This document shows, piece by piece, positions 19,276 to 36,717 of a stretch of DNA of 64,000 nucleotides; within the stretch, counting starts at the first letter, position 1, and every line of letters starts with the position of its first letter. The translations under genes were made by a program, and so were the position numbers. The DNA lies in the NCBI RefSeq assembly GCF_056746865.1, contig NZ_CM163382.1; one strand, 5' to 3'. The notes under the pieces were generated by a model, which saw only the letters and a list, made by a program, of their open reading frames with translations, searched no databases and was not told the origin of the DNA.

Positions 19276-19337
19276 TATTCGTTATTTCTGTGCCATGATT
19301 ACCTCGTCAAATTGAGTAGACGTTATGAGGTAAATAG

Positions 19338-19535: not shown

Positions 19536-19610
19536 TTAAATAGCTACGGGTTATTGCCCAAGCTATCCACTAGCAAATAAAAAGTAACTTAATTCGATAG
19601 CGGAGTTTTT

Positions 19611-20435
19611 ATGAAACTGCGAAAAACGCCCGTACAGGGGCAGGGCTTTGTTCGGCCTGAAAACCAGAATCTGCAAAATTTCGGCGAAATTATCCCGGTT
19701 ATTTCCGGCGTTATTGGCGGGCGTGAAGCCGCTGTTGTTAGCGCAAAAGCGTTACACAAAGCGTTGGGCGTGGGAAAAGACTTCTCTACATGGATCACTG
19801 ATCGTATCTCTGAATATGACTTCACCATTGGGTACGATTACTCAGTCCATAAAACAATTTCCCCAAATTTGGGGAAAAGCCCGAATGGCGAGGCTTACAG
19901 CAAGATTAAGCACTCTGGCAGACCCGGTAAAGACTATCTGTTAAGTGTCGGAATGGCGAAAGAACTGGCAATGATCGAACGCACCGAACAGGGCCGCGCC
20001 GTTCGTCAGTACTTCATCAAATGCGAGGAGGAGCTACACAAGGTAGCGCCTGTACGTTCCGCAGCGTTACGCCGGGAACTGAAAGCCCGTATCACCGTAG
20101 CCAGCTACTTTAAGCCAATGTGTGCCGCGCTGGAGGCGTACCGGGCTGAACTGGGTAAAAACACGCTCCAGCACCACTACACCACGGAAGCCAATATGCT
20201 GGCGCGTATCGTGCTGGGTGGCATGAATGCAAAACAGTGGGCGCAGGCGAACGGCATCACAGGCGAACCACGCGACCACATGAGCACGCTGCAGCTTGAG
20301 CACCTTTCTTACCTTGAGCAGAGCAATATCACGCTGATTGAGTTAGGCCAGGACTACCACCAGCGGAAAGCTGAATTAATTCGTCTTTCGCAACGCTGGT
20401 TAGCCCGCCGCATGGAGGTGAGCAGCCATGCGTAA
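19611..20435 (+). CDS. Phage antirepressor (AntA/KilAC-type)
   Basis: 274 aa; sequence resembles prophage antirepressor proteins; part of int-alpA-ant module. Confidence 0.65.
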   Translation: MKLRKTPVQGQGFVRPENQNLQNFGEIIPVISGVIGGREAAVVSAKALHKALGVGKDFSTWITDRISEYDFTIGYDYSVHKTISPNLGKSPNGEAYSKIKHSGRPGKDYLLSVGMAKELAMIERTEQGRAVRQYFIKCEEELHKVAPVRSAALRRELKARITVASYFKPMCAALEAYRAELGKNTLQHHYTTEANMLARIVLGGMNAKQWAQANGITGEPRDHMSTLQLEHLSYLEQSNITLIELGQDYHQRKAELIRLSQRWLARRMEVSSHA

Positions 20436-20985
20436 ACCTGTCTTTTATGCCGGTCGCACTGAAATCTCTGTCATTAAATTCGATGACATTCAGGTGCGCA
20501 TAGTGAGTATCAACGGCGAGCCGTGGTTTGTTGGCGCTGATGTGTGTGCCGCGCTGGAAATCAGCAATGTTACTGATGCCGTTTCAGTTCTGGATAACGA
20601 TGAGGTAATGACCCTAGCTTTAACCGAGGGTCATTCCGGTAAGCGTGGTGGTGCCAGAAGCTGGAATGTTGTCTCTGAATCAGGTTTCTACAAACTGATC
20701 GCCCGCAGCCGTAAAGCTTCCACACCAGGCACATTTGCGCACCGTTTCAGTAACTGGGTATTCCGCGAGGTGATTCCTTCAATCCGCAAAACGGGGGGTT
20801 ATGGTGTTCCGTTTGCCATGCTGAATGATTTCAGTAAACGTCAGGCTGCATATCAACAGGAAGCCAGCAAACGCGGTTACAGGTTACAGCAATGCAAAGA
20901 GGCAAAAGATGCACTGGAACGAGAAGAGCGGGCGCTATGGCGTAAATATCAGCCTGATTTTCTGGAGGGTGAAAGCAATGTGTAA
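20428..20985 (+). CDS. Bro-N domain protein (prophage antirepressor-like)
   Basis: 185 aa; N-terminal IRIVSINGEPWFVGADVCAALEISN is the Bro-N signature. Confidence 0.75.
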   Translation: MRKPVFYAGRTEISVIKFDDIQVRIVSINGEPWFVGADVCAALEISNVTDAVSVLDNDEVMTLALTEGHSGKRGGARSWNVVSESGFYKLIARSRKASTPGTFAHRFSNWVFREVIPSIRKTGGYGVPFAMLNDFSKRQAAYQQEASKRGYRLQQCKEAKDALEREERALWRKYQPDFLEGESNV

Positions 20986-21153
20986 CGATCCGAACGTTAC
21001 AGAAAGAAAAAGCGCCCCGTTGCTGGATAACAGGCAAAACAAAGGCGACCGGGATAGGTCGCCAGTGGGAACAAAGGAAATCAAACGCATCGCCAACAAT
21101 GCCAGATTTGCGGCTGGTGGGCAATGTGATCAGTGTGCTGGCTTGCTGGTGGG

Positions 21154-21351
21154 CTATTCCTGCTCTTTAGCATCGCCATACTGCGATGTTTTCCAGGTAT
21201 GCGATTCCATTTTTGTGCGCCTGTACTCTTTTAAGAACTTCTCAAGGACAAACGCACATGGCGCAAATCTTTCCTGTTCTTGTTCGCTTACCGCATTTTT
21301 GCGTTGTTTTTTCCTGGATGAGGATAATTTCTTTAATGATTTGTCAGTCAT
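21154..21351 (-). CDS. Small basic protein (65 aa), paralog-like partner of 21409..21606
   Basis: ORF on strand opposite to neighbours; both small ORFs end ...AKEQE and share a duplicated 3' DNA segment. Confidence 0.35.
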   Translation of the reverse strand: MTDKSLKKLSSSRKKQRKNAVSEQEQERFAPCAFVLEKFLKEYRRTKMESHTWKTSQYGDAKEQE

Positions 21352-21408
21352 CGTAGATACCTGTAACCCTGTGCGCCACAGTTCACCGCACCACGGCGCT
21401 GGTGATGG

Positions 21409-21606
21409 TTACTCCTGCTCTTTGGCCTTCCGGCGCTGTTCATATTTTAATTTGCGTCCACAGGCATCTAAGACCCATGCGGAAAAATTAGCACTAGGAT
21501 TAGTTAATTTTTCTTGTTCAACACTGGCATCAATCCCATCTATAAGCTCGTGCGGGAATCGAATATTTTTCTTTGCTGATTTGTTGTTTGTGTTTCCGCT
21601 AGACAT
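21409..21606 (-). CDS. Small ribbon-helix-helix-like DNA-binding protein (65 aa)
   Basis: NIRFPHELIDGIDASVEQEK...FSAWVLDA resembles Arc/CopG RHH pattern. Confidence 0.4.
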   Translation of the reverse strand: MSSGNTNNKSAKKNIRFPHELIDGIDASVEQEKLTNPSANFSAWVLDACGRKLKYEQRRKAKEQE

Positions 21607-21810
21607 TGGTACACCTCACTTAAATGGATTTGATGGGCGCACACAATACAGCAAAAAAAGTGAGAAGTTAAGTATTGACATGTGCGCACACATGATTTTA
21701 ATCTGTGCGCAAGTTTGGGTTGCATTGCTCAAATTAAGCAACGCCCCGCAGTGCTCGCAACACATGCAGGGCGTCTAACCACCAACGATAGAAAGCGTAT
21801 CGAGGTAGCT

Positions 21811-22014
21811 ATGTTAAATCATACCACACACCCGCAAGGGCGGGACTCGCACAACCTGAATAAATACATCTGGCGTTTTATCGCCCTGAGCACCGCACAA
21901 CCACGCGTAATACACATCGAGGCCGCCAGCGAACAGGAAGCCCGTCAGCAATCCCCGGCTGGCTGCGTGATGGTATTTACTGCCCGCATCCGTCAGGGGG
22001 AATACTATGCGTGA
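21811..22014 (+). CDS. Small hypothetical island protein (67 aa)
   Basis: ATG 21811 after GAGG; MLNHTTHPQGRDSHNLNKYIWRFIALSTAQ... Confidence 0.4.
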   Translation: MLNHTTHPQGRDSHNLNKYIWRFIALSTAQPRVIHIEAASEQEARQQSPAGCVMVFTARIRQGEYYA

Positions 22015-22264
22015 TGAACGATTTATTCTTCTGGAGCAAAAATTCAGTGAAGCGCCAAAAAATGAAATTGATGCTCTTTTGCATATCGCGAATATGCTAA
22101 AAGTAGCAACGTTCCTTATAGTTTCGAATCTGGAGCATGAAACGGCGTTAGATATACTGAACAGTGCTGTCGATTATTCTGAATATATTGCCGAGGATAA
22201 ATACAGGCAATTACCAGATTTGTTAGCCCATAAATATAAAGAAGAACCTCACACCGGGAAATAA
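22007..22264 (+). CDS. Hypothetical protein (85 aa)
   Basis: ORF in operon-like series upstream of primase gene. Confidence 0.45.
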   Translation: MRDERFILLEQKFSEAPKNEIDALLHIANMLKVATFLIVSNLEHETALDILNSAVDYSEYIAEDKYRQLPDLLAHKYKEEPHTGK

Positions 22265-22266
22265 AC

Positions 22267-22569
22267 ATGAAGAAGATTAAATTTACTGGCTTAAATGCCA
22301 GCGGACAGACTCACCCGAAAATCAGGATCGGGGATATTTTCCGGGATAAATATGGTGACAGCGTGGTTATTAATTCCGTGTATGAACGGCACATTACATA
22401 CCGCCGCGCAGGGTACGACTATGACTGTGTGATGCCCGTTCATCAGTTCCGGCGTGATTTTTCACTGGTATGTGCAGCACCACGCAGTAAGCCCACCAGT
22501 AAAGAGAAAGCACGGGCAAATATTCAGGTAATAAAGAACATGATTAACGCATTCAGGGGCAAGAAATGA
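22267..22569 (+). CDS. Hypothetical protein (100 aa)
   Basis: ORF overlapping primase start; tight spacing with neighbours. Confidence 0.45.
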   Translation: MKKIKFTGLNASGQTHPKIRIGDIFRDKYGDSVVINSVYERHITYRRAGYDYDCVMPVHQFRRDFSLVCAAPRSKPTSKEKARANIQVIKNMINAFRGKK

Positions 22570-24692
22570 AACGCGCACCGAATTTAAAGCACCAGCCGAA
22601 AGACAAAATGACGGAGGTGATTATCTTTGCGGGTAGTGATGCCTGGGCACATGCGAAAGAGTGGAGCGAATGGGCCGGAAAGCATATTGCGGCAGATGAT
22701 ACACATCCAGTTATTCTTGGACCGGAACAACTGGCGAGTCTGGCAGACACGCAAATCATCGACAAAGGGCGCTATTACGTGCGCGTTTATCGTGCTGGTG
22801 AAATATCAGAGCAGCACCTTACACAGATAGCGACACTGCTTGCAGTGGCGGGTGTGAAGGAGGCGCGTTGCTACCGCAGCTTTGTTGATCAGCAGCCGGA
22901 GGACTGGACACCGCGCATGGCTGGACTGAAGGATGATGCGGAACGCGGTAACAGTCTGGTGATCAACCTTCCGGCGAAGACAAATTTCACCGGAAATTAT
23001 GATGACGAATTAAAGCCTCGTGTTGAAAGTCGCGTCGATGGTGTTTTCTGGGTAACGCCCAAAGTGGACAAGCAGTCAGGCGAAATTATCCGGCCTGAGA
23101 CGTGGTTATGTTCTCCGCTTGAACTACTGGGAACAGGAACAATCGGCAAAGAGCATTACCGCGTGATGCGCTGGAAAAAACCAGCAAACCATGAGGTCAT
23201 TACAATGGCGGTCCCGTGCGGAGGCATTGGTGACCGTGACGGCTGGCGGTTGCTGAAAGACCACGGCCTTAACGTGACGACCAACGGCAAATACAGGGCT
23301 ATCTTGGCTGACTGGATGCAGTTAAGCGGAAACCATGAGGAATGGCAGTTAAGCACAACAACGGGGTGGCATTTTGGTGCGTACATCATGCCGGATGGTT
23401 CGATCATCGGTGAATCAGAGAAACCCATCCTGTTTACCGGAAAAACTGCCGCTGTTAATGGCTATTCCGTGGCGGGAACAGCGGAGGGCTGGCGCGATAC
23501 CGTGGCACGGCTGGCTGGTGGTAATCCGTCCATGATGCTGGGTGTGGCGGTATCGCTATCTGCACCATTAATCGGGCTGGTGGGTGCTGACGGCTTCGGG
23601 GTTCATCTTTTTGAGCAATCATCAGCAGGTAAAACCACCACACAGAACATTGCATCAAGTTTATGGGGAGAGCCGGACGCGCAACGGCTGACCTGGTACG
23701 GAACGGCGTTAGGTATCGCCAACGAGGCCGAAGCACATAATGACGGGCTGTTACCCCTGGATGAAATAGGCCAGGCCGGAAACGCACGGGAGGTGTCCAC
23801 GTCAGCCTATACGCTGTTTAACGGTTCCGGGAAATTACAGGGGGCGAAGGACGGCGGCAACAGGGAGATAAAACACTGGCGTACGGTGGCAATCAGCACC
23901 GGAGAAATGGACGTTGAAACATTCCTCAAAACGGAAGGGATAAAAATTAAAGCGGGACAGCTTGTCCGTCTGCTTAACGTACCGATGGAAAAGGCCTCGC
24001 AGTTTCACGAATACAGCACCGGAAAGGCGCACGCAGACGCGTTAAAAGATGCCTGGACAGAAAATCACGGGGCGGCAGGTCGTGAGTGGGTTAAATGGCT
24101 GGCAGGCCACCAGCAGGAGGCAAAGGACGCGGTAAGGGCATGTCGCGAGCGGTGGCGCAACCTGATACCGGAGAGCTACGGCGAGCAGGTTCACCGTGTG
24201 GGGGAAAGATTCGCCGTACTGGAGGCCGCGCTTGTGCTTTCCGGTCATGTTACAGGCTGGGATGTTCAGGCGTGCCGTGATGCAGTTCAGCATAACTTTA
24301 ATGCCTGGGTGAAGGAATTCGGCACGGGCAACAGGGAATTTAAACAGATGGTTGAACAGGCTGAGGCGTTTTTGTCGTCGTTCGGGTTCAGTCGATACCT
24401 TCCCTATCCAAACAGCGACGAGCGTGATTTACCGATTAAAGACCTTGCCGGATACAGAAAGGGGAGTATCAGAAACGAAGATGACGAGTTCCGTTTTTAC
24501 ACGTTCCCGCATGTGTTTGAGGGTGAGATAGCACAGGGATTTAATCCGTCTCACTTTGCCCGCGCGTTGAGTGCAGCCGGAATGCTGGAAGCGGGAGGCG
24601 ACCGCCGTTACAAGAAAAAGGCGCTCGGCAGGATTGGCGGGAAGCAACATATTTTTTACGTGCTGATGTTCCAGCCTGAAGCAGAAGATTAA
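22566..24692 (+). CDS. Satellite/prophage replication protein, DUF927-type primase-helicase-like, Walker A present
   Basis: 708 aa; Walker A-like FEQSSAGKTT; immediately followed by iterons. Confidence 0.75.
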   Translation: MKRAPNLKHQPKDKMTEVIIFAGSDAWAHAKEWSEWAGKHIAADDTHPVILGPEQLASLADTQIIDKGRYYVRVYRAGEISEQHLTQIATLLAVAGVKEARCYRSFVDQQPEDWTPRMAGLKDDAERGNSLVINLPAKTNFTGNYDDELKPRVESRVDGVFWVTPKVDKQSGEIIRPETWLCSPLELLGTGTIGKEHYRVMRWKKPANHEVITMAVPCGGIGDRDGWRLLKDHGLNVTTNGKYRAILADWMQLSGNHEEWQLSTTTGWHFGAYIMPDGSIIGESEKPILFTGKTAAVNGYSVAGTAEGWRDTVARLAGGNPSMMLGVAVSLSAPLIGLVGADGFGVHLFEQSSAGKTTTQNIASSLWGEPDAQRLTWYGTALGIANEAEAHNDGLLPLDEIGQAGNAREVSTSAYTLFNGSGKLQGAKDGGNREIKHWRTVAISTGEMDVETFLKTEGIKIKAGQLVRLLNVPMEKASQFHEYSTGKAHADALKDAWTENHGAAGREWVKWLAGHQQEAKDAVRACRERWRNLIPESYGEQVHRVGERFAVLEAALVLSGHVTGWDVQACRDAVQHNFNAWVKEFGTGNREFKQMVEQAEAFLSSFGFSRYLPYPNSDERDLPIKDLAGYRKGSIRNEDDEFRFYTFPHVFEGEIAQGFNPSHFARALSAAGMLEAGGDRRYKKKALGRIGGKQHIFYVLMFQPEAED

Positions 24693-24715
24693 CTTCCCTG
24701 TGTGAGGTAAAAAGT

Positions 24716-24845
24716 TGCGGGTTATGCGGGTTATCCTGTGCATAAGTTAATTAACTGAATGATTAAAAAGGAAATTAATAACCCGCACGTAACCCGCAAA
24801 ACGGCAGTTATAACCCGCAAATGTGCGATTGTAACCCGCAAAATT
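24716..24845. repeat. Iteron cluster 1 (putative replication origin): convergent copies of TTGCGGGTTAT / ATAACCCGCAA
   Basis: gttgcgggttatgcgggttat then aataacccgcacgtaacccgcaaaacggcagttataacccgcaaatgtgcgattgtaacccgcaaa. Confidence 0.7.
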
Positions 24846-24902
24846 TCACTGTAAGAGTGTAAACAAGCGTAACTATCACGTTAAAACCGGAGAACAAACA
24901 GC

Positions 24903-25328
24903 ATGACGGCGCAAATATCAGCTTACGGGCGGCTGGTGGCTGACCCGCAGTTAAAGACCACCAGCAAGGGCACACAAATGGCGATGGCGAGTATGGCGGT
25001 CCCCCTTCCATGCAATCAGACAGATGACGGAACGGCGACGATGTGGTTATCCGTCCTGGCGTTTGGCAGACAGGCTGACGCACTGGCAAAACACCACAAA
25101 GGCGAACTGGTGAGCGTGGCCGGTAACATGCAGGTGAGCTGGTGGACGGGCCAGAACGGCGAAACGAGGCAGGGATGGCAGGTTATCGCAGACAGCGTAA
25201 TCAGTGCGCGAACGGCGCGACCGGGCGGCAAAAAAGGCCAGCAGGGGCAGGCTACTGATGCACTGAACAGGGCAAAGCAACAGACAGGCCAGCACGATGA
25301 TCCGTACGGGGACGGGATACCGTTTTAA
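24903..25328 (+). CDS. Single-stranded DNA-binding protein-like (OB-fold)
   Basis: 141 aa; pattern GRLVADPQLKTT...WLSVLAFGRQADALAKHHKGELVSVAGNMQVSWW...GETRQGWQV resembles SSB OB-fold core; Gly/Gln-rich tail ending DDPYGDGIPF like the SSB acidic tip. Confidence 0.55.
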   Translation: MTAQISAYGRLVADPQLKTTSKGTQMAMASMAVPLPCNQTDDGTATMWLSVLAFGRQADALAKHHKGELVSVAGNMQVSWWTGQNGETRQGWQVIADSVISARTARPGGKKGQQGQATDALNRAKQQTGQHDDPYGDGIPF

Positions 25329-25411
25329 TTCACAACAGCGAACAGAGTAATTACCCAGTGCGCCGTAAAGCCCCGTCCTTCAGGTCGGGGATATAAGGCG
25401 CGGTTTTCCAC

Positions 25412-25828
25412 CTAACTAGGTGTTTGCTGTTGTTCAATGTATTGGCGGATGATGGATATTGGCGCACCTCCGCAGCTACTGGCAAAATAGCTGGGACTCC
25501 ATAAAACGCCTTTGTAGTAATACCTGACTGCAATATCTGGTCGATCTCGTCGCAATAATCTACTCGATACGCCCTTGAGACTGTTCACCAGGGTGGATAT
25601 CGCCAATTTGGGAGGATAGTTAATTAGCAGGTGAACGTGATCTCGTTCTCCATCCATTTCAACCAGTTCAGCTTCAAAATCAGCACATACACTTGAAAAG
25701 TAAGTGCGTAGTTTTTCTATTGCGTCATGGTCAAAAATCTGGCGTCGGTACTTGGTAACAAAGACCAGGTGAACGTGCATCAGGAAGACACAGTGCCTTC
25801 CACGTCGGATATCGGTTTCTTTTTTCAT
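25412..25828 (-). CDS. tnpA: IS200/IS605 Y1 transposase TnpA
   Basis: Start at MKKETDIRRGRHCVFLMHVHLVFVTKYRR; HuH motifs HVHLV and DHVHLL; ends ...GGAPISIIRQYIEQQ. Confidence 0.88.
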   Translation of the reverse strand: MKKETDIRRGRHCVFLMHVHLVFVTKYRRQIFDHDAIEKLRTYFSSVCADFEAELVEMDGERDHVHLLINYPPKLAISTLVNSLKGVSSRLLRRDRPDIAVRYYYKGVLWSPSYFASSCGGAPISIIRQYIEQQQTPS

Positions 25829-25850
25829 AGGCCAAAGTATAATTTGGCAT

Positions 25851-27059
25851 ATGAAACGACTACAAGCTTTCAAATTCCAGTTAAGACCAAATGGAAAACA
25901 GGAGCGTGAAATGAGGCGCTTCGCGGGCGCATGTCGTTTCGTTTTCAATCGTGCTCTGGCGCTTCAGAATGAGAATCATGAGGCCGGGAACAAATATATT
26001 TCTTATGCAAAGATGACTTCCTGGCTGGTTGAATGGAAAAATGCTACTGAAACGCAATGGCTTAAAGATTCTCCCTCACAGCCATTGCAGCAGTCACTGA
26101 AAGACCTTGAGCGAGCCTACAAAAATTTCTTTCAGAAGCGTGCCGCTTTTCCCCGATTCAAAAAGCGGGGACAGCATGATGCATTCCGCTATCCGCAGGG
26201 TGTTAAGCTCGATCAGGAAAACAGCCGTATTTTTCTGCCGAAACTGGGCTGGATGCGCTACCGGAACAGCCGTCAGGTCACGGGTGTTGTGAAAAATGTC
26301 ACTGTCAGCCAGTCCTGCGGTAAGTGGTACATCAGTATTCAGACAGAAAGTGAAGTATCAACTCCGGTTCACCCTTCAGCATTAATGGTCGGGCTGGATG
26401 CTGGCGTGGCTAAACTCGCCACGCTGTCAGATGGCACGGTCTTTGAGCCTGTAAACAGTTTTCATAAAAACCAGAAGAAGCTGGCGAGACTTCAGCGCCA
26501 GTTAAGCCGCAAGGTTAAATTCAGCAACAACTGGCAGAAGCAGAAACGCAAAATACAGCGACTGCATTCCCGTATCGCAAATATCCGCAGGGACTACCTT
26601 CACAAAGTCACAACGACCATCAGCAAAAACCACGCAATGATAGTCATTGAGGATTTGAAGGTCAGCAACATGTCAAAGTCAGCCTCGGGTACGGTCAGCC
26701 AGCCGGGGCGCAATGTCCGGGCAAAATCAGGTTTAAACCGTTCGATACTGGATCAGGGCTGGTATGAAATGCGCCGTCAGCTTGAGTACAAGCAGCTCTG
26801 GTGTGGCGGTCAGGTGCTTGCTGTTCCGCCAGCGTACACAAGCCAGCGTTGCGCGTGCTGTGGTCATACAGCGAAAGAAAATCGCCTGTCACAAAGTCAA
26901 TTCAGATGCCAGGTATGTGGATATACAGCGAACGCCGATGTAAACGGCGCTCGTAACATTTTAGCGGCGGGGCACGCCGTTCTTGCCTGTGGAGGGATGG
27001 TGCAGTCAGGCCGCCCGTTGAAGCAGGAACCCACCGAAATGATTCAGGCGACAGCCTGA
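25851..27059 (+). CDS. tnpB: TnpB (OrfB) RNA-guided nuclease-like protein
   Basis: 402 aa; [17 protein letters not shown]...; C-terminal CxxC...CxxC zinc finger ([37 protein letters not shown]). Confidence 0.9.
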
Positions 27060-27265
27060 ACGTAGCAGGAATCCACGTCCTTCAGGGCGTGGAGGATGTC
27101 AAATATCAATGCGACGACTGGAATGTTCCAGGAAGGCACAGAGGCCACCGAAGCAACCGGATAATTTAGAAGACCTGAAACGGTCGCTTAAACGCACTGA
27201 AAAAGAAATGGGGATAGATGGGATCGGGAAATCAGTATGGCGTAACTACCAGAAGTAAGCACAGA
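27060..27265 (+). ncRNA. Putative omegaRNA (reRNA) scaffold at tnpB 3' end / IS right end
   Basis: By analogy with IS200/IS605 TnpB systems; structured region ending in hairpin GCCGGAGCAATCCGGC plus T-run. Boundaries not determined. Confidence 0.35.
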
Positions 27266-27289
27266 GCCGGAGCAATCCGGCTTTTTTTT
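27266..27289 (+). terminator. Hairpin plus T8 tract at IS right end
   Basis: gccggagcaatccggc followed by tttttttt. Confidence 0.5.
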
Positions 27290-27389
27290 GGCTGAAATCA
27301 ATCAATCTGTTTTTGTGATAGAAATATATTTATCTACCACTTTTTTCGATCAATAATGTGCATAATTTAGTCATTAAGAGGAAATTGCT

Positions 27390-27596
27390 GTGAATTGTAT
27401 TAACGACCTGAACACAGGCGATGTCAGAGGTGGTTCCGTTCATCTGGATGCACAGACCGTGATGCGCCTTAAGCAGTACAGAATCGACCATGTGAACAAT
27501 CACCCTGATCAGCCATTACCAGGCGTGGCGCAGATTGTCAGACATGCCGTAAACGCCTGGCTTAATCAGAATGGTTTTGCATCGGGGGGTGAGTAA
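27390..27596 (+). CDS. Small protein (68 aa), first gene of the novel operon; possible regulator
   Basis: GTG start 27390 preceded by AAGAGG; no recognisable family. Confidence 0.45.
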   Translation: MNCINDLNTGDVRGGSVHLDAQTVMRLKQYRIDHVNNHPDQPLPGVAQIVRHAVNAWLNQNGFASGGE

Positions 27597-27692
27597 TGAA
27601 TCGCTGGTACAGCATCAAAGCAGAGGGACGCCAATGTTATCTAACTCAGGTTTTATGAATTCTGACTCCCGATTCAAAATAGGAGGTTACTA

Positions 27693-30224
27693 ATGCCAGT
27701 CGTACCAACAGTATCCGGACGTCAGGTTGAGAGCCGTGGAGTTCAGTCAGCAGGCTTGCAGACGTTTTCTCAGCCAGGTATTGGTGATGCTTTTGTTCGG
27801 GCAGGGGCAGAGGCAATTGATGTTTTTGGTCAGGCAAAACAGCGTGCCAATATTGCCTTGATTCAGGAGGCATCCCTTAAACTCAGTCAGATAGGCAGTG
27901 ATCTGCTGAATAATCCTGAAACAGGATTGCTTAACCTGAAAGGGAAAAATGCTATTGGAAAAGGCCATGAGTATACACAGCAGTTTGATGCTCAGATCGA
28001 ACAACTGGCTATGTCGCTGCCGGATGAACAGGCTCGTAATGCTTTCATGCAGCAGGCGCAGCAGCAGCGTATTCAGTTCGCTACGCAGGCCGGGAGGTAC
28101 GAGATAGGGCAAATAAATGCCTACGAAGAAGGCCAGTTTCAGGCGACACTGCTGAATAATGGTAAAAATGCCTCAGCATTATATGGCGACAACGCAGCAT
28201 ACATATTGGCTAATACGCAAACTTTCCAGCAAATTGAGGATTACGGTATTGCGCATGGCTGGAGCGACGAGCAAATCCAGGCCAAGAAAATCGAGTTTAA
28301 AGAAGCAACAGCAAAAGCAACTGCTCAAAATGCTATTGGAGCAAACTATCTTCAGGTAAGACAGCAAAATGGCGAGTTAAGCGATACTGCTGCTGGATCT
28401 CGCCGTGCTGTAGCAGATAGTGGCTCTTCCGATCGTACCCGCGGTATACGCAACAATAACCCCGGCAATCTTGAATACAGCAAAACTAATCCGTGGATTG
28501 GGCAGACTGGTGATGATGGTCGCTTTGCCAAATTCGAAACCCCTGAACACGGTATTCGCGCGCTTGGTCGCAATTTGCTGTCGTATCAGCGTCAGGGTTA
28601 TGACACCATCAGCGAAATAATTAATCGCTGGGCACCGGCCAGTGATGATAATAAAACTGATGCTTATATACGGGCAGTATGTGCTCAGCTCGGTGTAACT
28701 CCTGACCAGCCGCTTGACGCATCAAATCCTGACACACTGAAATCTCTGTGCAAAGCAATTATTCATCATGAGCAAGGCAGTCAGCCGTACAGTGATCAGC
28801 AATTGGCCGCTGGCGTTAGTGCCGCACTGGGGCTTTCTCAGCTACCGACAAAAAATAAACGTTATACCGGTGTAGCCTGGTTCGATGCTTTAAGTGAATC
28901 AGATCAGGCCAGCGTGTTGCGACAGACGGATGCATTAGCCAGACAGCAGCAGGCTGAATATAGAACGATGCTCGAAAGCCGGGTTCGCGATGCAACGGCT
29001 GCGTATATGCGTGGCGTTGAATTTCCTAACCCGCCTGGTGAGGGTGAGTTCATTGCTGCTTATGGTGTCAGAGAAGGAAACCTGCGATATACCGAGTTCA
29101 GAAATTTGCAGATCGCCGGACAGTATATAGGCTCTTTCCGCAACATGCCGACAAGCAGCATTACCGCATATGTTGAGCAATTACGCCCGGATACTGGTGA
29201 GACAGGGGAGGGGTATGCGTCTCGTGCGGAGTTATTCGACCGGGTATCGGCGGCAGCCACGAAGGTAATAACCCAGAGGCAGAATAATCCGTTTAGTGCA
29301 GCGGTGGAAATCGGAGCCTATAAGCCGATCACCAGCAACAACCCTGACGACATCACTGCCGAGGTGGCTAACCGTTTCTCGTCGCAGGAAAGCTTACGCG
29401 CGTTGGGAATTAATGCCCCACTCCTCAACAGTGAAGAGGCGGCTGCGCTGGCACAGCAGGTGCGCGGCACTCAGAACGTTGACCAGACAATTAAACTGTT
29501 GCAGAGCATGGGGGAGAAGCTGCCTGCGCCAGCAATACGGCAGGTGGCATCTGTAATTGCTCCGAACAGTGCGGCAACAGCCTATTCTGCGCTGCTGCTG
29601 GGCACGCCGGATAACCAGTACGACAACACCAGGCCGACGATCCCATATAGTCAGTTCATCGGGTATAAGCCGACGATGAACAAGTACGACGTTGCAAAGG
29701 TTATTCTTTCCGGCGACCAACTACTGAATCCGACGAAGGCCATGAAGAATGCGGGCATAACTCCGGTACAGTTGCCGAGCGAAGATAAGATGAAAGACGC
29801 TTTCGACGAACAGGTAGGTAATGCATTTGCCCGTAACCCGCAGTTACGCCAGATCAGTTATAGCCTTTTCAAAGCCGCTTACGCAGGAATAGCTTATCAA
29901 TCTGGTGATGCCTCTACGGTAAGAACCAGTATGCCTGATACAGACATTGTAGCTGATGCCGTGAAGTATGCTACTGGCGGTATATACAATGGTTTTAATG
30001 GCGGCGACGTTGTAATGCCTTTTGGCATGGATAAATCTACTTTCAAAGATCGCTATACCACATCTGCGAAACAAGCACTGAAAGATGCCGGACTTAACGT
30101 AAATGCAGTGTCAAATTTCACGCCAGTTAATATCGGCAATAACCGGTATCGGCTTGTAAATGGTAGCGGACGCTGGGCAACAGATCCCAGAACCAATAAA
30201 GCTATTGTCGTGAGGGTTGAATAA
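27693..30224 (+). CDS. Large hypothetical protein P1 (843 aa), Q/A-rich, conserved-looking block RNNNPGNLEY...
   Basis: Strong RBS AGGAGG before ATG 27693; stop overlaps next start (TAATG). Confidence 0.8.
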   Translation: MPVVPTVSGRQVESRGVQSAGLQTFSQPGIGDAFVRAGAEAIDVFGQAKQRANIALIQEASLKLSQIGSDLLNNPETGLLNLKGKNAIGKGHEYTQQFDAQIEQLAMSLPDEQARNAFMQQAQQQRIQFATQAGRYEIGQINAYEEGQFQATLLNNGKNASALYGDNAAYILANTQTFQQIEDYGIAHGWSDEQIQAKKIEFKEATAKATAQNAIGANYLQVRQQNGELSDTAAGSRRAVADSGSSDRTRGIRNNNPGNLEYSKTNPWIGQTGDDGRFAKFETPEHGIRALGRNLLSYQRQGYDTISEIINRWAPASDDNKTDAYIRAVCAQLGVTPDQPLDASNPDTLKSLCKAIIHHEQGSQPYSDQQLAAGVSAALGLSQLPTKNKRYTGVAWFDALSESDQASVLRQTDALARQQQAEYRTMLESRVRDATAAYMRGVEFPNPPGEGEFIAAYGVREGNLRYTEFRNLQIAGQYIGSFRNMPTSSITAYVEQLRPDTGETGEGYASRAELFDRVSAAATKVITQRQNNPFSAAVEIGAYKPITSNNPDDITAEVANRFSSQESLRALGINAPLLNSEEAAALAQQVRGTQNVDQTIKLLQSMGEKLPAPAIRQVASVIAPNSAATAYSALLLGTPDNQYDNTRPTIPYSQFIGYKPTMNKYDVAKVILSGDQLLNPTKAMKNAGITPVQLPSEDKMKDAFDEQVGNAFARNPQLRQISYSLFKAAYAGIAYQSGDASTVRTSMPDTDIVADAVKYATGGIYNGFNGGDVVMPFGMDKSTFKDRYTTSAKQALKDAGLNVNAVSNFTPVNIGNNRYRLVNGSGRWATDPRTNKAIVVRVE

Positions 30225-32284
30225 TGTCTGATGTTTTTTCTTTGGCTCCAGAAGGTCAGGCATGGATTGACGACAAAACAGTTGCCAACCCAGCAAGGCC
30301 AGAAGACTACGATCCGACTCCCTTCCAGGGTTCAGGTACTGCACTTTTGAGCGGCGTGGCGGAGGGGGCTCTCGGTCTCGCGCAGTCTGCCGTCGGATTC
30401 AGCAAGCGTCTGATTAGCGATCCGGCATTTACCGCAGACGTGGCACCGACAGTTAATATTTTTCGGGAGATGTTCCCTGATGCTGACAAAACACTGAATG
30501 ATACATACGACACGATCGGAAAACAGTTACAGGATGCCCGCAGCTATGTGAAGCCTGATGCAGGCAGCCAGGGAATGGCGGCTGAGGTATTAAATGAGCT
30601 TGGTAAATTTGTTCCTGCAATCGGAACAACTATGTTTGGTGGTCCGCTCATCGGCGCTGCTACAGCCTTCAGTTCTACGTATGAGCAGTCCTATCAGGAT
30701 TTTAAAGGGAAGGGAGTAGACGAGGCTACAGCGCGTAACCTGGCAACGCAGCAGAGCCTTTTCAATGCTGTGGGTATGGCCTTACCCGCTGCCGTCGGCA
30801 CCACACTGGCAACGCGCATTGCCTCAGGTGTGGCAATCAACACCGGATTCGGTGGACTGAACCGTTACTCAGTAGGCGCAACACTGGAGGAAAAAGGCTA
30901 CACGGAGATGGCAAAACAGTATCGGGTATTTGACGGTCAGGCGATGTTAGTCGATGCCGTTTTAGGCGGGGTCTTTGGTGGCGTTCATCACCTGACTACC
31001 CATAATAACCATGATGGTACAGAGTCGAACATTTCTGCAGAAGAAATAAAATCAACTTTTGGTGAACATTATCAGCAATCTCCTGATGGTAACATTGAGT
31101 CAATGGTTCGTGATTTATCTGATTCAGGAGTAATAGAACTTATTAATGAACCAGCAATAAAAAATAGTGATGGAGAAATACTTCTGAATAAAGGTCATGT
31201 GACAGTAGCTTCCGGAAAAGAACCAATAATAAGAATAAATATTAATGGATTAAAAGACCATGAAGAACTGTTAGAAACCCTTCATCACGAGGCGCTTCAT
31301 CTTGAGCAGCGCCATTACCCTGACTGGAAGGCCAGAAAGCTAGCTAATGCTGTACTTAAATCTGCAAACAAGCATTCTGACTATCCTGAATTTGCATATG
31401 GGATGTCACAATATTATGAATATAAGAAAAGGGGTGAGTACCCTGAAACATATCCTGAGTGGTTGTACGCTGAAGAAGTTGCCGCACATGCAGTAAATCC
31501 ATCTCTAAAGACAAGCGTTTCATCATGGGAAAAAATTATTTCAGGTTTTAAAGCCTATATATTCAGATACAGTGGTATTCAGGTTGGAACCGTTACACCT
31601 GAGCAGTTACGGTTACTCGTAAGTATGCGTCTTCGCAATATGAAACTGGAAGCCGCAGTAGAAAAAGTTTTTGGTATCCGGGCGAGGGAAAGAATAAAAC
31701 CAAGCGATATTGATGCAGCCCACATTTTGAATGAGGGGCTTCATTACGATATTGAATCGTCACCAGTGCTTCATACCAGCAATGAGAGCATCAACAGCCA
31801 TGTTGACGCCATGGATGAAGCATACAGGCAACTTAATGATGGTCAGCCTGTAAATGTTGGGGGGATGGCGCGAGGGCTTGATGGTCCATTGCGATCAGAT
31901 ATATCTGATACTTACCAAGAGCAATACCATGAAATACAAAAGGTTTTTGAAGAAAATGGTGTCAGATACGAAACATCATCAGAGCCAATTAGTGAATCGC
32001 CTGTCCCTCGTGCTGAAAGTGCTTTCTCATCGGCTGGTGAACACAGAGGGGACATCAGCGTTGATCCAGATACAGGGCAGGTTCTCTCATCCAACAGCTA
32101 TGACCTTATGGCTGCCAGGGACATGGCTGTTGCCAATCCTGAGCTGACTATAGCTCACCCGGAAACCGGAAACCCGACAAAACTTTCTGATCTCCTGGCT
32201 GAGTTGGATGAACAGATTAAGACAGTCCAGAACGAATCGAAGGTTTATTCTGTAGCAGCAGCGTGCTTCTTGAGGAACCCATAA
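30224..32284 (+). CDS. Large hypothetical protein P2 (686 aa) with glycine-rich hydrophobic segments and an HExxH motif
   Basis: HEALH at nt 31286-31300; N-terminal third has repeated Gly/Ala-rich hydrophobic stretches; TAATG coupling at both ends. Confidence 0.8.
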   Translation: MSDVFSLAPEGQAWIDDKTVANPARPEDYDPTPFQGSGTALLSGVAEGALGLAQSAVGFSKRLISDPAFTADVAPTVNIFREMFPDADKTLNDTYDTIGKQLQDARSYVKPDAGSQGMAAEVLNELGKFVPAIGTTMFGGPLIGAATAFSSTYEQSYQDFKGKGVDEATARNLATQQSLFNAVGMALPAAVGTTLATRIASGVAINTGFGGLNRYSVGATLEEKGYTEMAKQYRVFDGQAMLVDAVLGGVFGGVHHLTTHNNHDGTESNISAEEIKSTFGEHYQQSPDGNIESMVRDLSDSGVIELINEPAIKNSDGEILLNKGHVTVASGKEPIIRININGLKDHEELLETLHHEALHLEQRHYPDWKARKLANAVLKSANKHSDYPEFAYGMSQYYEYKKRGEYPETYPEWLYAEEVAAHAVNPSLKTSVSSWEKIISGFKAYIFRYSGIQVGTVTPEQLRLLVSMRLRNMKLEAAVEKVFGIRARERIKPSDIDAAHILNEGLHYDIESSPVLHTSNESINSHVDAMDEAYRQLNDGQPVNVGGMARGLDGPLRSDISDTYQEQYHEIQKVFEENGVRYETSSEPISESPVPRAESAFSSAGEHRGDISVDPDTGQVLSSNSYDLMAARDMAVANPELTIAHPETGNPTKLSDLLAELDEQIKTVQNESKVYSVAAACFLRNP

Positions 32285-35040
32285 TGAAACAGGCATGTGT
32301 GGAAGCTATTGCGCAGACACTTGGTCGCCAGCCAAAGGCTGATGAGCTGAAAAATATTGAAGATCGTATCAAAGAAGCTGTGCAGCATGTGCACAGAAAG
32401 AATGCCAAAGAAGGCAAAAGTGGTATTCCTGATGCTCAAACATACATGGATGCAGCAGAACTGGTACGCCAGCGTGTGGTTCATGATGTGTACAAGAAAA
32501 GACAGCGTGTTGCCCAGAATGCGATCGCCATCAGTAAAATTACTGACACTCTCGATGCTAACATCCCGCCTGATCAGCAGACACCTGTTAATTTGCAGCA
32601 GTTTATTTTTGCTGGCCGACGATCGAGAGACAAAGCTGATATCTCCGTTACTTCTGCTGAAGAACTTGCAATTGGGGCATATCAGGACTGGTCCCGTCAG
32701 CTCAGTGCTGAACTTCTAAAAGCAGGTGATGACGTCCGCAAATTCTTCGAGCAGAGCAGGGCGCTTGGAGAGCAGCGGTTTCGGAGTGTATTCGACAGGC
32801 AGGCGGCAAAGTCTGCACAACTCCAGATCCTGAAAGAAATATATGGCGAAGATACCGGGAATCCCCTGGCGAAGAAAATTGCACAGATTTGGAAGGATGT
32901 AACAGGCCGTGTTCGTCATGAGATGAACGACAATGGCTTTGACATAGGCCTGCGAGAAGACTGGCATACGCCATATGTGGATGATGCTGACCTTATTCGC
33001 AATGCCGGGCGCGAAGAATGGCTGGCATCGTTACCAGTGGCAGAGCAAGCTACAGCACGTCTTTCAGGTCGCCAGCCACCGATTGAGTTTGCCCGCCAGA
33101 AATGGGTTGATGACGCTTACAACACGCAGGATCGCAGCAATTACGTTAATCCTGACGGCAGCATTATGAATGACGTCGAGTACCGTCAGGCACTGGAAGC
33201 GATCTTTGAAACGAAGGCCACTGATGGGGCAAACAAAATTGAGCCTGGTACATTTATGGGAGCCGGAGGAATAAAGAGCCGTGGTTCTCAGCACAGGGTG
33301 ATGGCGTTCAAGGATGCGCAGTCACACTTCGCCTATATGGAACGATACACTCAGCAGCCGCTGGTGGGGGTGATGATGTCGCACCTGCAATCATCATCCA
33401 GGGATTTGGGCGTCGTTAAAGCCTTTGGTCCGGACGCCGAAAGAAACTTTTCCCTGGTACTGGATCGCATCTATAAGCGCGCAGTAACAGGCGGGAAACG
33501 CAAAAAAGAAATGGAGGATGAGGCCAAATTAGTTGCCCGTATGTTCAACTCAATGGCTGGCCTAAATGGTGTCGCTTCATCGAGTGTGTTCTCTTCAGCA
33601 GTTGGTGGTCTGCGTAACCTGATGACCAGCGCCATGCTTGGCACCAGCGTACTGACAGCAACCAGCGACCAGGCAATTATGCGGGCAAATGCGCAGGCGC
33701 TGGGCTTTACCCGTGGTGGAATGCGGCTTTCCGTTAACACTATCAAAAACCTGTTTAGTGGAGATGCCAAAAAGGCGAATGCTGAACTCGGTCTGCTGGT
33801 GGATTCACATGCTGCTGTGGTTTCGAAAATGGGCGGGTTTGACTTGTCTCGCGGCATAACTGGCTGGTTCGCAGAGAAGACACTGAAGTGGTCCGGGCTG
33901 ATCGCTATGGACCGCGCAAACAAAGCGTCGTTTGGTCTCCTGATGTACAAAAACATTGGCGAGCTGACCAGAAAATTTAAGACGCTGGACGATATGAAAG
34001 GAACCGATAAAACCATTCTGGCTAACAAGGGATGGAGCAATGAGGACTGGGCCATCATGGCAGCGGCAGAACTCAGGCCGATGACTACTGCCGGGCATAT
34101 GGGGATGACGCCAGACGCGATTTACGCTGTGCCCGATAACGTAATAGCCGACATTATGGCAGACCGTATTACCCGGATTCGTGCCGGGAGTGAAAAGGCA
34201 CTGGCAGCCCTTGGAGATCTCCCTCCAGAACGCCTGAAACGGATGAAAGAAGCATTCGACGCTGAGGCTGAGCAGACCATCACGCGCATGATTCGTAATG
34301 CACGCGCTGAAGCAGCCCAGAAATTGCTGGGAATTACGCACGGTGAGATGACCAATGCTGTGACCACCGCTACGGGTATTGATACATATGCCCGTGATGA
34401 TGCTGGCGAGTTAATGAAGAGCTTCATGCTCTTCAAAACAACCCCATTTGCTGGATTTCGGCAACTTGTTAACAGAACACGGGATTTGGACACCGTTCCG
34501 GCCATTAAATTTCTGGCCTCATATATCGGGGGAACAACTCTTGCTGGTATGTTTGCGATCCAGATGAACAGTTTGTTAAATGGTAATGATCCGCTGGATA
34601 TGACAAAACCAACCACATGGGTTCAGGCTTTACTGAAAGGTGGTTCGTTCGGTATCTACGGTGATTTTATTTTCCAGGACCATACGCAATATGGCTCCAG
34701 CATCGGTGCCACTATGGGTGGCCCTGTGTTGAGCTTTGCAGAGCAGTTAACAAAATTACTGATTACTAACCCACAGAAGGCTCTACAGGGTGAAGAAACA
34801 TCATTCGGTGCCGATGCACTGAAAACAGCCCGCATGATCACCCCATTCGCAAACCTGTGGTATGCGAAAGCGATAACCAATCACCTGATATTGCAACAAC
34901 TTCAGGAGATGGCAAACCCTGGTTACAATGATCGAGTAAGGGACCGCGCGCAACGGGAGTTCGACATAACGAGTTGGTGGGAACCGGGTGCTATTGCGCC
35001 ACGTAGAGCACCGGATTTTGGAAAGGCGGTGGGGAACTGA
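32284..35040 (+). CDS. Large hypothetical protein P3 (918 aa)
   Basis: ORF 32263..35040; start taken at MKQACVEAIAQ (ATG 32284 overlapping P2 stop); Gly-rich hydrophobic segments toward C-terminus. Confidence 0.8.
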   Translation: MKQACVEAIAQTLGRQPKADELKNIEDRIKEAVQHVHRKNAKEGKSGIPDAQTYMDAAELVRQRVVHDVYKKRQRVAQNAIAISKITDTLDANIPPDQQTPVNLQQFIFAGRRSRDKADISVTSAEELAIGAYQDWSRQLSAELLKAGDDVRKFFEQSRALGEQRFRSVFDRQAAKSAQLQILKEIYGEDTGNPLAKKIAQIWKDVTGRVRHEMNDNGFDIGLREDWHTPYVDDADLIRNAGREEWLASLPVAEQATARLSGRQPPIEFARQKWVDDAYNTQDRSNYVNPDGSIMNDVEYRQALEAIFETKATDGANKIEPGTFMGAGGIKSRGSQHRVMAFKDAQSHFAYMERYTQQPLVGVMMSHLQSSSRDLGVVKAFGPDAERNFSLVLDRIYKRAVTGGKRKKEMEDEAKLVARMFNSMAGLNGVASSSVFSSAVGGLRNLMTSAMLGTSVLTATSDQAIMRANAQALGFTRGGMRLSVNTIKNLFSGDAKKANAELGLLVDSHAAVVSKMGGFDLSRGITGWFAEKTLKWSGLIAMDRANKASFGLLMYKNIGELTRKFKTLDDMKGTDKTILANKGWSNEDWAIMAAAELRPMTTAGHMGMTPDAIYAVPDNVIADIMADRITRIRAGSEKALAALGDLPPERLKRMKEAFDAEAEQTITRMIRNARAEAAQKLLGITHGEMTNAVTTATGIDTYARDDAGELMKSFMLFKTTPFAGFRQLVNRTRDLDTVPAIKFLASYIGGTTLAGMFAIQMNSLLNGNDPLDMTKPTTWVQALLKGGSFGIYGDFIFQDHTQYGSSIGATMGGPVLSFAEQLTKLLITNPQKALQGEETSFGADALKTARMITPFANLWYAKAITNHLILQQLQEMANPGYNDRVRDRAQREFDITSWWEPGAIAPRRAPDFGKAVGN

Positions 35041-35354
35041 TGACGAGAGATAAAATTGAATATATTGCTTCTCTTAAATATGAAGCTGAGAAATGGAGAA
35101 GGATTGGCGGGTGGGGAACATTAATATCACTCTCTGCTTTACTTATAGACTCCTGGTTCAGACATATTGATGCAGCATCATTACTTTTTGAATCAGCAGT
35201 ACTTGGTGGATTCATTTGCTGTTGGGGTGGTAATTATGATCGGGCGTCCAAACATAAGAGAGAACTTGACGCGATATGTTTTGCTTTATTCGGTAAGGAT
35301 TACGAAAGTTCTGACCTTGATATAATTGAATTCAACAAAACGGAACTATCGTGA
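35040..35354 (+). CDS. Small predicted membrane protein P4 (104 aa)
   Basis: ATGA overlap with P3 stop; two hydrophobic segments (GTLISLSALLIDSWF, AVLGGFICCWGG). Confidence 0.6.
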   Translation: MTRDKIEYIASLKYEAEKWRRIGGWGTLISLSALLIDSWFRHIDAASLLFESAVLGGFICCWGGNYDRASKHKRELDAICFALFGKDYESSDLDIIEFNKTELS

Positions 35355-35362
35355 CATGTCAC

Positions 35363-35388
35363 AGGCCGCTTTCGCGGCCTTGTTTTTA
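35363..35388 (+). terminator. Rho-independent terminator closing the P1-P4 operon
   Basis: aggccgctttcgcggcct followed by tgttttt, 9 bp after the P4 stop. Confidence 0.6.
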
Positions 35389-36054
35389 ACGAATGCCACC
35401 GCCGCCCGGGCGGGAATTCGCAGATAAAAAAGCACGCTGCACGGTTTTATTAATACTTATACCATTAGGATTGATCCTTCAATGGACAATCCTTCCATCG
35501 TGTGGCCAGCCATTCATATTCTTTGTCTTTTCTTCAGTATCGGCTTTGCATCTTCTACACCCTGAAAGATGTCGTTTTATGGTGTATCTGATGATTTATT
35601 CCCTAACAATAGATATTCGAAAAATTAATCAGTTAAAACAATTATTTGGATAATTTCAGGTAAAACTATCTTAATCTTCTGGTGGATCTCAATGCGTAGT
35701 GACGGTATCGGGATTAAGGGCGTGGATATTCGCGATATATGCCGCTACACCCCTCAACAGTAATAGATATGAGCTTTTCACGCTCTCCTTTCACTGCTGA
35801 GAACGGCAACAACGTGCCACAGGAACGCGCTGTAATCGATTCTGACGCACTTAATTGCGTTGGGTAATGGTTTTTGCCAGCCTGTGGGGGTAACTCTGTT
35901 TTATGAGGCTTTGGCTATAGTGCAAAAATACACTTTGTCTTGCCTCTCAATTTGATGAGACTGGAACGACAACAGGACAGACCACCAGCAACAGTTACCG
36001 TATTCAGCCGTTCTGTGGCACCAGTGGAACTATCAACCCCTGCTTTCAGCAATG

Positions 36055-36212
36055 TGTTTGCGGGTTATTTTGGGGCGTTTGCGGGTTATTTGGGATGTTT
36101 TGCGGGTTATGTGATGCTTGAATAATGAACAGTGTATTTTGCAACATATTGATACTAAAGAACAAAAAATAGTTAGCATACTAAGATAACCCGGTAACCC
36201 GCATAACCCGCA
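36055..36212. repeat. Iteron cluster 2: three direct TTGCGGGTTAT copies then three inverted ATAACCCGC copies
   Basis: Same 11-mer family as cluster 1 at 24716-24845, about 11.3 kb away. Confidence 0.65.
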
Positions 36213-36699
36213 CTGTTTTGTATATATATACGAAAAATTGCATTCAGGAGGGGGGGAGCGAAATCCCTACAATCCATTGCTTATGGGACCGCCCGCCTCG
36301 TCAAATTTTTACACCCGCGAAATAAAAAAATACTTCACGCTGGTGGGCATGATGCTGATATGGGAGGCTTCCATAACGCCACCATTCGGAACTATGCAAA
36401 TCTGCATAGAAAAGGGGATGCCTGATACAATACCCTCGCCCGATAAAATCACACCGATAAACTCATCTGCCACGAGTAGAAAGAGCGAACGAACCCGATA
36501 CGCAGTAATGCTTGTCGGGTACAGCTTTTTAAGGCGGCTGTAGATATCAGGCCATCCGTGATCATCCACCAGCGAGATAGCCGATAACGATGACGCATAA
36601 CCCTCAAGCGAGGGATAAATGTGTATAGAAATGTGTATAGAATTGATTTTAGAACTCGCAGGATTCGCGCTATTACTGGCCTTGTGTGATGTTGTATTG

Positions 36700-36717
36700 T
36701 TCCCTTCGCCCGCTCCA
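36700..36717. repeat. tRNA 3'-end remnant / right att repeat (TTCCCTTCGCCCGCTCCA)
   Basis: 18 nt consistent with T-arm/acceptor stem/CCA of tRNA-Gly (glyU-like) as I recall it; contains the 15-bp repeat shared with 16792-16806. No complete tRNA in the window. Confidence 0.55.

Follow-up and report, generated by a model that had tools for sequence, protein, structure and literature searches.

The locus and the HEALH motif

A 64,000-nucleotide stretch of DNA (contig NZ_CM163382.1 of NCBI RefSeq assembly GCF_056746865.1; hereafter the window) was analysed around the gene of a 686-residue protein, P2, that contains the sequence HEALH, a motif of the HExxH type found in zinc metallopeptidases. The P2 gene is flanked by genes for homologs of the ejection proteins gp15 and gp17 of Salmonella phage epsilon15, and the three genes belong to a 19.9-kb integrative island. 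The features discussed are collected in Table 1.

Translation of the plus strand from 31250 to 31330 gave LKDHEELLETLHHEALHLEQRHYPDWK, which places HEALH at residues 355-359 of P2, exactly where the initial annotation of the window had located it. The minus strand opposite the motif was broken by stop codons. The same annotation had regarded a lone HExxH as weak evidence, and our counts agreed with it: 0.046 such motifs are expected in P2 from its composition, one turned up in 4.4% of 20,000 shuffled versions of P2, and four were counted when the whole window was translated in six frames. The bare motif is weak evidence; it is lifted above chance by conservation, because H355, E356 and H359 as well as E417 and E418 are invariant across the relatives described below.

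Table 1. Positions of P2, its parts, the neighbouring ejection-protein genes and the island in the window.
Feature	Position	Strand	Description or basis
P2	30224..32284	+	686-aa open reading frame; epsilon15 gp16 homolog, internal virion/ejection protein, IVP-C-like
Central replacement cassette (aa 258-490)	30995..31693	+	Alignment break, foreign composition
Zincin-like MPTase domain (about aa 290-475; ~190 aa)	31091..31648	+	phrog_10089, BLASTP, hhalign, AF2
HEALH (H355, E356, H359)	31286..31300	+	Two predicted zinc ligands and the predicted catalytic base
E417-E418	31472..31477	+	Candidate third zinc ligand, E418 preferred; predicted helix 130-141
epsilon15 gp15-like ejection protein	27693..30224	+	Transglycosylase region; phrog_992 and phrog_1044
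epsilon15 gp17-like ejection protein (IVP-D, T7 gp16-like)	32284..35040	+	phrog_684, 918 aa
Integrative island, PICI-like satellite candidate	16793..36717	+	Direct repeats, integrase, AlpA, replication genes
aa, amino acids; IVP, internal virion protein; AF2, AlphaFold2; PICI, phage-inducible chromosomal island.

P2 belongs to the gp16 family of ejection proteins

P2 matched phrog_1145 of the PHROGs collection with an E-value of 2.3e-136, and in tblastn searches its two ends were approx. 82-84% identical to gp16 of epsilon15 and to the homolog of Enterobacter phage BUCT554. Its homologs formed 420 clusters, mostly of 521 or 629-636 residues. Membership in the phrog_1145 family fits both the conserved N- and C-terminal regions and the position of the gene between the gp15-like and the gp17-like gene. 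Over 843 residues the 843-residue gp15-like protein was 79% identical to epsilon15 gp15, and the gp17-like protein was 89% identical to epsilon15 gp17 over 917 residues. For epsilon15, Hardies et al. (PMC4819975) take gp13 and gp14 as IVP-A and IVP-B, name gp15 and gp16 as candidates for IVP-C and assign gp17 to IVP-D. Internal virion proteins leave through the tail and form a trans-envelope conduit for the DNA (PMC8954989). The epsilon15 row of Table 1 in the latter paper (gp11/12/13) conflicts with the GenBank numbering and was not used.

Four Gly/Ala-rich, moderately hydrophobic stretches were identified in P2, at residues 41-59, 129-147, 178-205 and 235-258, with a Kyte-Doolittle maximum of 1.2-1.3. 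All of them lie in the conserved N-terminal part of the ejection protein, outside the central region that contains HEALH.

The mechanically called open reading frame of the gp17-like protein begins with a GTG at 32263, and similarity to epsilon15 gp17 sets in at the ATG at 32284. This ATG overlaps the stop codon of P2 by one base, as is also the case in epsilon15 and in RefSeq, and is probably the true start of the gene.

The centre of P2 is an imported cassette

When P2 was aligned with epsilon15 gp16 (634 residues) and the BUCT554 homolog (521 residues), residues 1-257 and 491-686 were conserved and the middle was unrelated; the alignment stopped at about residue 258 and restarted at IKPSDIDAAH, residue 491. 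With epsilon15 gp16 (AAO06079) and the 521-residue alleles of Uetakevirus prophages, P2 thus shares 257 N-terminal and 196 C-terminal residues at about 82-89% identity, together with the gene position between gp15 and gp17. Unlike in P2, the centre of these proteins consists of a Pro/Ala-rich linker of 53-75 residues, or of such a linker plus a helical segment of approx. 110 residues, and contains no HExxH.

The gp16 centre was surveyed in the 120 best of the 420 homologous clusters, in 109 of which both conserved borders could be located. A Pro/Ala-rich linker of 53-75 residues was found in 77 clusters, an epsilon15-type centre of 177-184 residues in 29, and a cassette of the P2 type, 234-238 residues long, in three. 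HExxH was absent from the alleles without the cassette among the clusters surveyed. Of the three cassette clusters, P0003 is identical to P2 and comprises 339 member sequences, P0004 is a truncated copy, and P0005, whose gene adjoins a T7_gp14-like gene, is the sole other gp16-type allele with a full cassette. The cassettes of P2 and P0005 were 61% identical and both kept HExxH and the EE pair; the block TLHHEALHLEQR-YPDWKARKLANAVL was fully conserved between them, and the surroundings of HEALH were the best-conserved part.

The base composition of the cassette (GC 38.5%; GC at third codon positions, GC3, 26.6%) was lower than that of the flanks within the P2 gene (GC 46-53%, GC3 41-50%). Because of this difference, and because most gp16 alleles lack it, we concluded that the cassette is a horizontally acquired, dispensable insert in a payload slot of the protein. 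The low GC suggests a recent import from a low-GC source, although the Burkholderia and Ralstonia phages with related modules are high in GC. The cassette was found as a single copy in 36 of 5,426 complete E. coli genomes.

Relatives of the cassette in Bcep22-like podophages

In a permissive tblastn search against phage genomes, the cassette matched giant proteins of podophages annotated as 'DarB-like antirestriction / PLxRFG' proteins. The hosts of these phages are Ralstonia, Klebsiella, Serratia, Ochrobactrum, Pseudomonas and Burkholderia. The matched regions have a common layout, in which a strand is followed by LLHE(A/M/L)FH(S/A/Q)G and, approx. 60 residues further on, by EE(F/L)(G/A)AY and W..K......FG.Q.G.VTP.QLR.LA. 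By BLASTP the C-terminal third of the domain matched proteins of Ralstonia phage AhaGv (E 2e-10) and Klebsiella phage ZX1 (E 8e-10), and the full domain was covered by phrog_10089 ('DarB-like antirestriction'; E 4.6e-4, profile positions 3426-3612 of 4647). When the two gp16-type sequences were aligned as a profile with the Bcep22-type set, hhalign gave 98.5% (E 3e-15) over 166 columns. The module of the Bcep22-like podophages (Bcep22 gp75, JC1 gp69, AhaGv, ZX1 and LASTA; approx. residues 3430-3620) and the cassette are therefore homologous over the whole domain.

Conservation was evaluated in a set of 29 non-redundant relatives (<85% identity) taken from phage records and IMG/VR. With default MAFFT settings and three sequences the HExxH motifs fell three columns out of register; with L-INS-i and more sequences they were in register. 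Invariant in 29 of 29 were H355, E356, H359, E417, E418, A421, K443, G451, Q453, G455, T458, P459 and Q461. The initial annotation had named a lack of conservation among homologs as grounds for discarding the motif, and the opposite was found.

The Bcep22-type module has HExxH, W368, the EE pair, K443 and G-Q-G-VTP-QL in common with the cassette. Identity between the two was only 21-28%, and HE(A/M)FH-SG and AYA of the phage modules are replaced by HEALH-LE and AHA in the cassette. The carriers also differ. Those of the Bcep22 type have 3,700-4,600 residues and many modules (transglycosylase, methylase, helicase and an IVP-D-like end), whereas the cassette is the sole recognisable cargo of the 686 residues of P2. 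They are packed in podophage virions, as P2 probably is too, and JC1 gp69 was detected in purified virions by mass spectrometry (PMC9144972).

Other searches with the cassette gave little. A phmmer search with the cassette against 1.8 billion representatives returned nothing beyond a 74-residue fragment of the same protein; a word-indexed homolog search gave no match with the cassette and one fragment of 258 residues with a three-sequence profile; tblastn against plasmids gave three marginal PLxRFG matches and nothing else. PADLOC gave no match.

Link to the N4 virion RNA polymerase and to named MPTase families

The 'zincin-like MPTase' of polyvalent proteins was defined from residues 2130-2448 of the virion RNA polymerase (vRNAP) of phage N4 (Iyer et al. 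2017, PMC5512222). According to the same study it is the commonest domain in the giant polyvalent proteins that are injected together with phage or plasmid DNA, and its core combines a three-stranded sheet and an N-terminal helix with two further helices, one bearing HExxH and a later one bearing the Glu; variable inserts separate the latter two. The N4 region reads DDKTIYLVSPS..METLIHELVHAS ... ALNEFMAWGL ... VKDVYQAIKKLIWG and by eye resembles the cassette family.

Profile comparison agreed with this impression. The family alignment (A4) gave 79.8% (E 1.5e-5) against the single N4 sequence in hhalign, and 95.2% (E 2.5e-8) over 122 columns, with HExxH in register, against a non-redundant alignment of 67 N4-like sequences. 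Reversed or column-shuffled profiles gave less than 1%, and masking of HExxH still left 80%. The Bcep22-type set alone gave 94.7% against N4. At the level of sequence profiles the C1 region of N4 vRNAP and the Bcep22-type module clearly form one family, and the gp16-type proteins are linked to N4 transitively, via the Bcep22-type module. HExxH was kept in 79 of 80 N4-like loci.

In the alignment with C1 of N4 vRNAP (gp50, residues 2124-2375) the strand, the HExxH helix and the Glu helix of the cassette all found their counterparts. HEALH aligned with HELVH, and the EE helix with the N-E of N4 ('ALNEFMAW'), where the second position alone is Glu. Because of this E418 is the preferred candidate for a third ligand. 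Like P2, which belongs to a family of ejection proteins, N4 vRNAP is an internal virion protein that is ejected (PMC12633501). C1 differs from the cassette in having N-E for E-E and in being fused to an RNA polymerase, and the relationship is distant. The C1 region is encoded at 17683-18657 of phage N4, minus strand, and is present in the solved full-length vRNAP structures (PDB 9pnr, 9pnq and 11gp). Pfam gave no match for N4 C1 either.

Assignment of the cassette to the ArdC type was rejected, because it had no sequence match to PF18818 (MPTase-PolyVal), which we take to be the Pfam model covering the ArdC protease domain. Likewise no sequence similarity was found to ArdC of plasmid R388, which has a C-terminal zincin metalloprotease domain (PDB 6sna). 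Unlike P2, ArdC has an N-terminal domain that binds single-stranded DNA and is transferred by conjugation.

Predicted structure and active site

An AlphaFold2 model of the domain based on 27 sequences reached a pLDDT of 76.9 and a pTM of 0.74; an earlier model from 12 sequences, with a pLDDT of 61.5, was of low quality and gave meaningless matches in Foldseek. In domain numbering, the better model contained a helix at 9-18, short strands at 22-25, 30-31, 37-38 and 54-57, a helix at 64-81 with HExxH at 73-77, two insert helices, and a helix at 130-141 with the EE pair at 135-136. At the level of sequence and predicted secondary structure the domain thus has the hallmarks of a zincin, HExxH on an alpha-helix and a later Glu helix. 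The order of the predicted elements weakly fits the described core of the MPTase/zincin fold. A Foldseek search of the 27-sequence model against the PDB gave nothing significant and no zincin. The initial annotation would have given up the motif if it were buried in a non-zincin fold; on this point the order of elements speaks weakly for a zincin and the structure search lends nothing to it.

In the predicted site, H355, H359 and E418 would hold a zinc ion, E356 would activate a water molecule as general base, and H422 might stand in for the Tyr of the family. The initial annotation had proposed that a downstream acidic residue could serve as the third ligand, and the invariant pair E417/E418 supplies such a residue.

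The island around P2

The island is bounded by 13-nt direct repeats, TTCGCCCGCTCCA, which correspond to the 3' end of a tRNA-Gly gene and lie at 16793-16805 and 36705-36717 (0.07 matches expected by chance). Its genes encode, in order, a tyrosine integrase, AlpA (PF05930, E 2.8e-19), AntA and BRO-N antirepressors, a DUF927-type primase-helicase, a single-stranded DNA-binding protein (SSB), TnpB, a phrog_4934 protein, the gp15/gp16/gp17 trio and a 104-residue open reading frame. The primase resembles those of the small satellite-like 'phages' PT1028, phiAH14b and vB_Pae_U10. The trio are the only virion genes of the island, in which no capsid, portal, terminase, tail, lysis, gp13 or gp14 genes were found, and none of the known capsid-redirecting genes were seen. 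That P2 is part of a complete epsilon15-like prophage could be ruled out, as the capsid, portal, tail, lysis and gp13/gp14 genes of such a prophage are absent. The 521- and 634-residue gp16 alleles, unlike P2, lie in full Uetakevirus prophages that extend from portal to lysis, and not in a 20-kb island.

Integrase, AlpA, a primase/replication module, small size, attachment (att) repeats and the absence of a complete virion module are the gene criteria for PICI- and P4-like elements, and all were found here. From its gene content the island looks like a PICI-like satellite with its own ejection proteins, which may depend on a helper phage. The island-type junction was detected in 45 of the 5,426 complete E. 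coli genomes. A literature search for satellites that carry ejection proteins, or that use epsilon15 as helper, returned nothing relevant. An att repeat was also sought in strain SCU-105 and was not found there, though the window has one.

TnpB of the island belongs to the IS200/IS605 family (RNA-guided endonuclease family, E 8e-117); its open reading frame, 25851-27059, lies within a segment (25354-27103) that is an insertion or replacement between the SSB and ejection genes, and this place is taken in SCU-105 by a gene of the ProQ/FinO family together with a hypothetical gene. The phrog_4934 gene (27390-27596) is located directly upstream of the gp15-like gene, and a close copy of it in other E. 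coli genomes adjoins a gene for a 'ClpP-like prohead protease/major capsid protein fusion'. This arrangement hints that virion modules may be exchanged behind the phrog_4934 gene in related islands. The 104-residue open reading frame (35040-35354) directly follows the gp17-like gene and has a hydrophobic stretch; it had no PHROGs or PADLOC match and no similarity to the open reading frame in the same position of an Enterobacter Uetakevirus prophage.

To the left of the island, positions 14887-16805 hold a truncated type I-E CRISPR-Cas locus with cas6e (15483-16271) and a cas1 fragment of 199 residues (14887-15486), in which cas3, cse1, cse2, cas7 and cas5 are missing. Upstream of this locus iap, cysDNC and rpoS are found. 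In SCU-105 the left flank is the body of a tRNA-Gly gene, unlike in the window, where ARAGORN detected no tRNA. A deletion or rearrangement seems to have placed the att core immediately next to the cas locus. The region downstream of the island, 39150-51190, corresponds to the ETT2 type III secretion cluster (sctC, gatekeeper, sctV, sctN and sctR/S/T/U). This assignment follows RefSeq, which annotates the cluster in the SCU-105 region of 99.8% identity and marks some of its genes there as frameshifted.

Discussion

In this study we characterised P2 as an ejection protein of the epsilon15 gp16 type with an acquired central domain. The zincin-like reading of this domain is based on the MPTase domains to which it is homologous, those of the polyvalent proteins that phages inject, and not on the lone motif; it is supported by homology and conservation, and weakly by the predicted fold. 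The initial annotation had argued from HExxH together with membrane-like segments to a proteolytic effector. A zincin-like module is indeed indicated by homology, but the hydrophobic segments lie outside the cassette and are not its basis. Judged by its relatives, the domain is of a kind already known from injected polyvalent proteins, the MPTase, in a divergent and architecturally minimal version. Polyvalent proteins contain 2-15 domains and are delivered with the invading DNA, whereas P2 is 'monovalent', with one recognisable cargo domain.

We favour, with moderate confidence, the reading that P2 is injected and that its MPTase domain cleaves a host target in trans. The protein would travel inside the capsid and pass with the DNA through the tail into the cell envelope, with the conserved N- and C-terminal parts serving the ejection function; the peptidase would then cut a host protein, such as one of defence or of the envelope. 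A trans-acting protease is favoured because the peptidase is the sole cargo, so that P2 contains nothing else to release, and because most gp16 alleles function without the cassette. For the latter reason the cassette is an accessory payload. The domain is probably an enzyme that enters the bacterium together with the injected DNA, and an effector role of the P2 cassette is plausible. From sequence comparison we infer that it may bind zinc and be catalytically active, and that it may enter the infected cell and act as a protease after ejection. ArdC of plasmids offers a functional analogy for an injected protease that acts in trans and counters a host function.

Several observations weigh against this reading. 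The cassette departs from near-invariant residues of the family (F358L, G361E, Y422H, E425N and P429K). Pfam gave no match at E<=10 for P2, the isolated domain or 12 relatives, and NCBIfam and PDB sequence profiles contained no family match for the domain, the PDB returning only chance matches to the FRB domain of mTOR. When the two gp16-type sequences alone were compared with N4, hhalign gave 16% (E 0.0016). The authors of the N4 vRNAP structure mention the HExxH of C1 and give no function for it (PMC12633501), and no phage member of the MPTase domain family has demonstrated catalytic activity. Finally, proteins of the epsilon15 gp16 type could end in the cytoplasm or in the envelope.

The second choice after cleavage in trans is a self-processing peptidase, which would have no host target and would cut P2 itself or its partners gp15 and gp17 after packaging or ejection; such a cut might, for instance, free the C-terminal part of P2 from the membrane-active N-terminal part. 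Autoproteolysis was proposed by Iyer et al. as the main role of the MPTases in polyvalent proteins, DdrB of P1 is processed before packaging (PMC5512222), and gp20 of P22 may require cleavage for its function (PMC8954989). We nevertheless consider it rather unlikely for P2, in which the peptidase has no second cargo domain to set free; moreover the 77 and 29 of 109 gp16 clusters that have no peptidase domain indicate that the gp16 scaffold needs no built-in processing. More doubtful is a purely structural or assembly role, in which the zincin fold and motif are kept without protease action, for incorporation into the capsid core or for binding of a metal or a partner. The region of N4 vRNAP with the MPTase is needed for encapsidation of a protein that is packaged unprocessed (PMC5512222), and the loss of the near-invariant G361, Y422 and E425 from the cassette would be in line with such a role. 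However, the H, E, H and EE positions are strictly invariant across families that share 21-28% identity, which would be difficult to account for if there were no metal or catalytic site, and the HEALH block is the very part that P2 and P0005 conserve best.

The domain might also act in the envelope, cleaving the peptide stems of peptidoglycan or a periplasmic envelope protein and so helping the ejectosome to cross the wall beside the gp15 transglycosylase. Muralytic domains, including a D,D-endopeptidase, do occur on homologs of IVP-C and IVP-D (PMC4819975, PMC8954989), and the neighbouring gp15-like protein has a transglycosylase region. Against this, no similarity to known families of cell-wall peptidases was found in Pfam, NCBIfam or PHROGs, and the carrier proteins of the relatives also hold modules whose site of action is the cytoplasm (methylase and helicase), which makes such a function very improbable. 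A chance HExxH in a helical segment of another fold is hardly credible any more. The frequency of the motif in shuffled P2, the Foldseek search without a zincin and the missing Pfam match would allow for it, but invariance in all 29 relatives and in 79 of 80 N4-like loci, the conserved Glu helix downstream, and a profile homology of 80% with the motif masked speak against it, and on these sequence comparisons chance occurrence is effectively refuted.

How such a protein would be used by the island is a more speculative matter. Only tentatively, and with the odds against it, we suggest that a satellite of epsilon15-like podophages swaps its own ejection trio into particles built by the helper, without remodelling of the capsid. 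The injected zincin cassette would then either inactivate a protein that serves defence or the envelope in the next host or sabotage the helper.

The MPTase carriers known so far are proteins of 3,500-4,600 residues with many domains and are hard to handle, and the list of phage examples with a demonstrated activity or substrate is empty. In P2 an MPTase-type domain is found as the sole cargo of a 686-residue protein of an E. coli element, and the natural cassette-free alleles are built-in controls; the role of injected MPTases is therefore testable by point mutants. With a Pfam-style model built from A4 and the N4-like set, hundreds of phage proteins could be annotated, and the epsilon15-type gp16 centre, as a swappable payload slot, has a potential use in the engineering of protein delivery by podophages. 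We consider the finding of moderate interest, as it makes the function of the domain tractable and concerns an unusual carrier island. If the speculative satellite scenario is true, P2 would represent a 'monovalent', minimal form of the polyvalent-protein strategy, in the first satellite known to have its own ejectosome. If confirmed, a satellite-like island with three ejection proteins as its sole virion genes would constitute a new mode of helper-phage exploitation.

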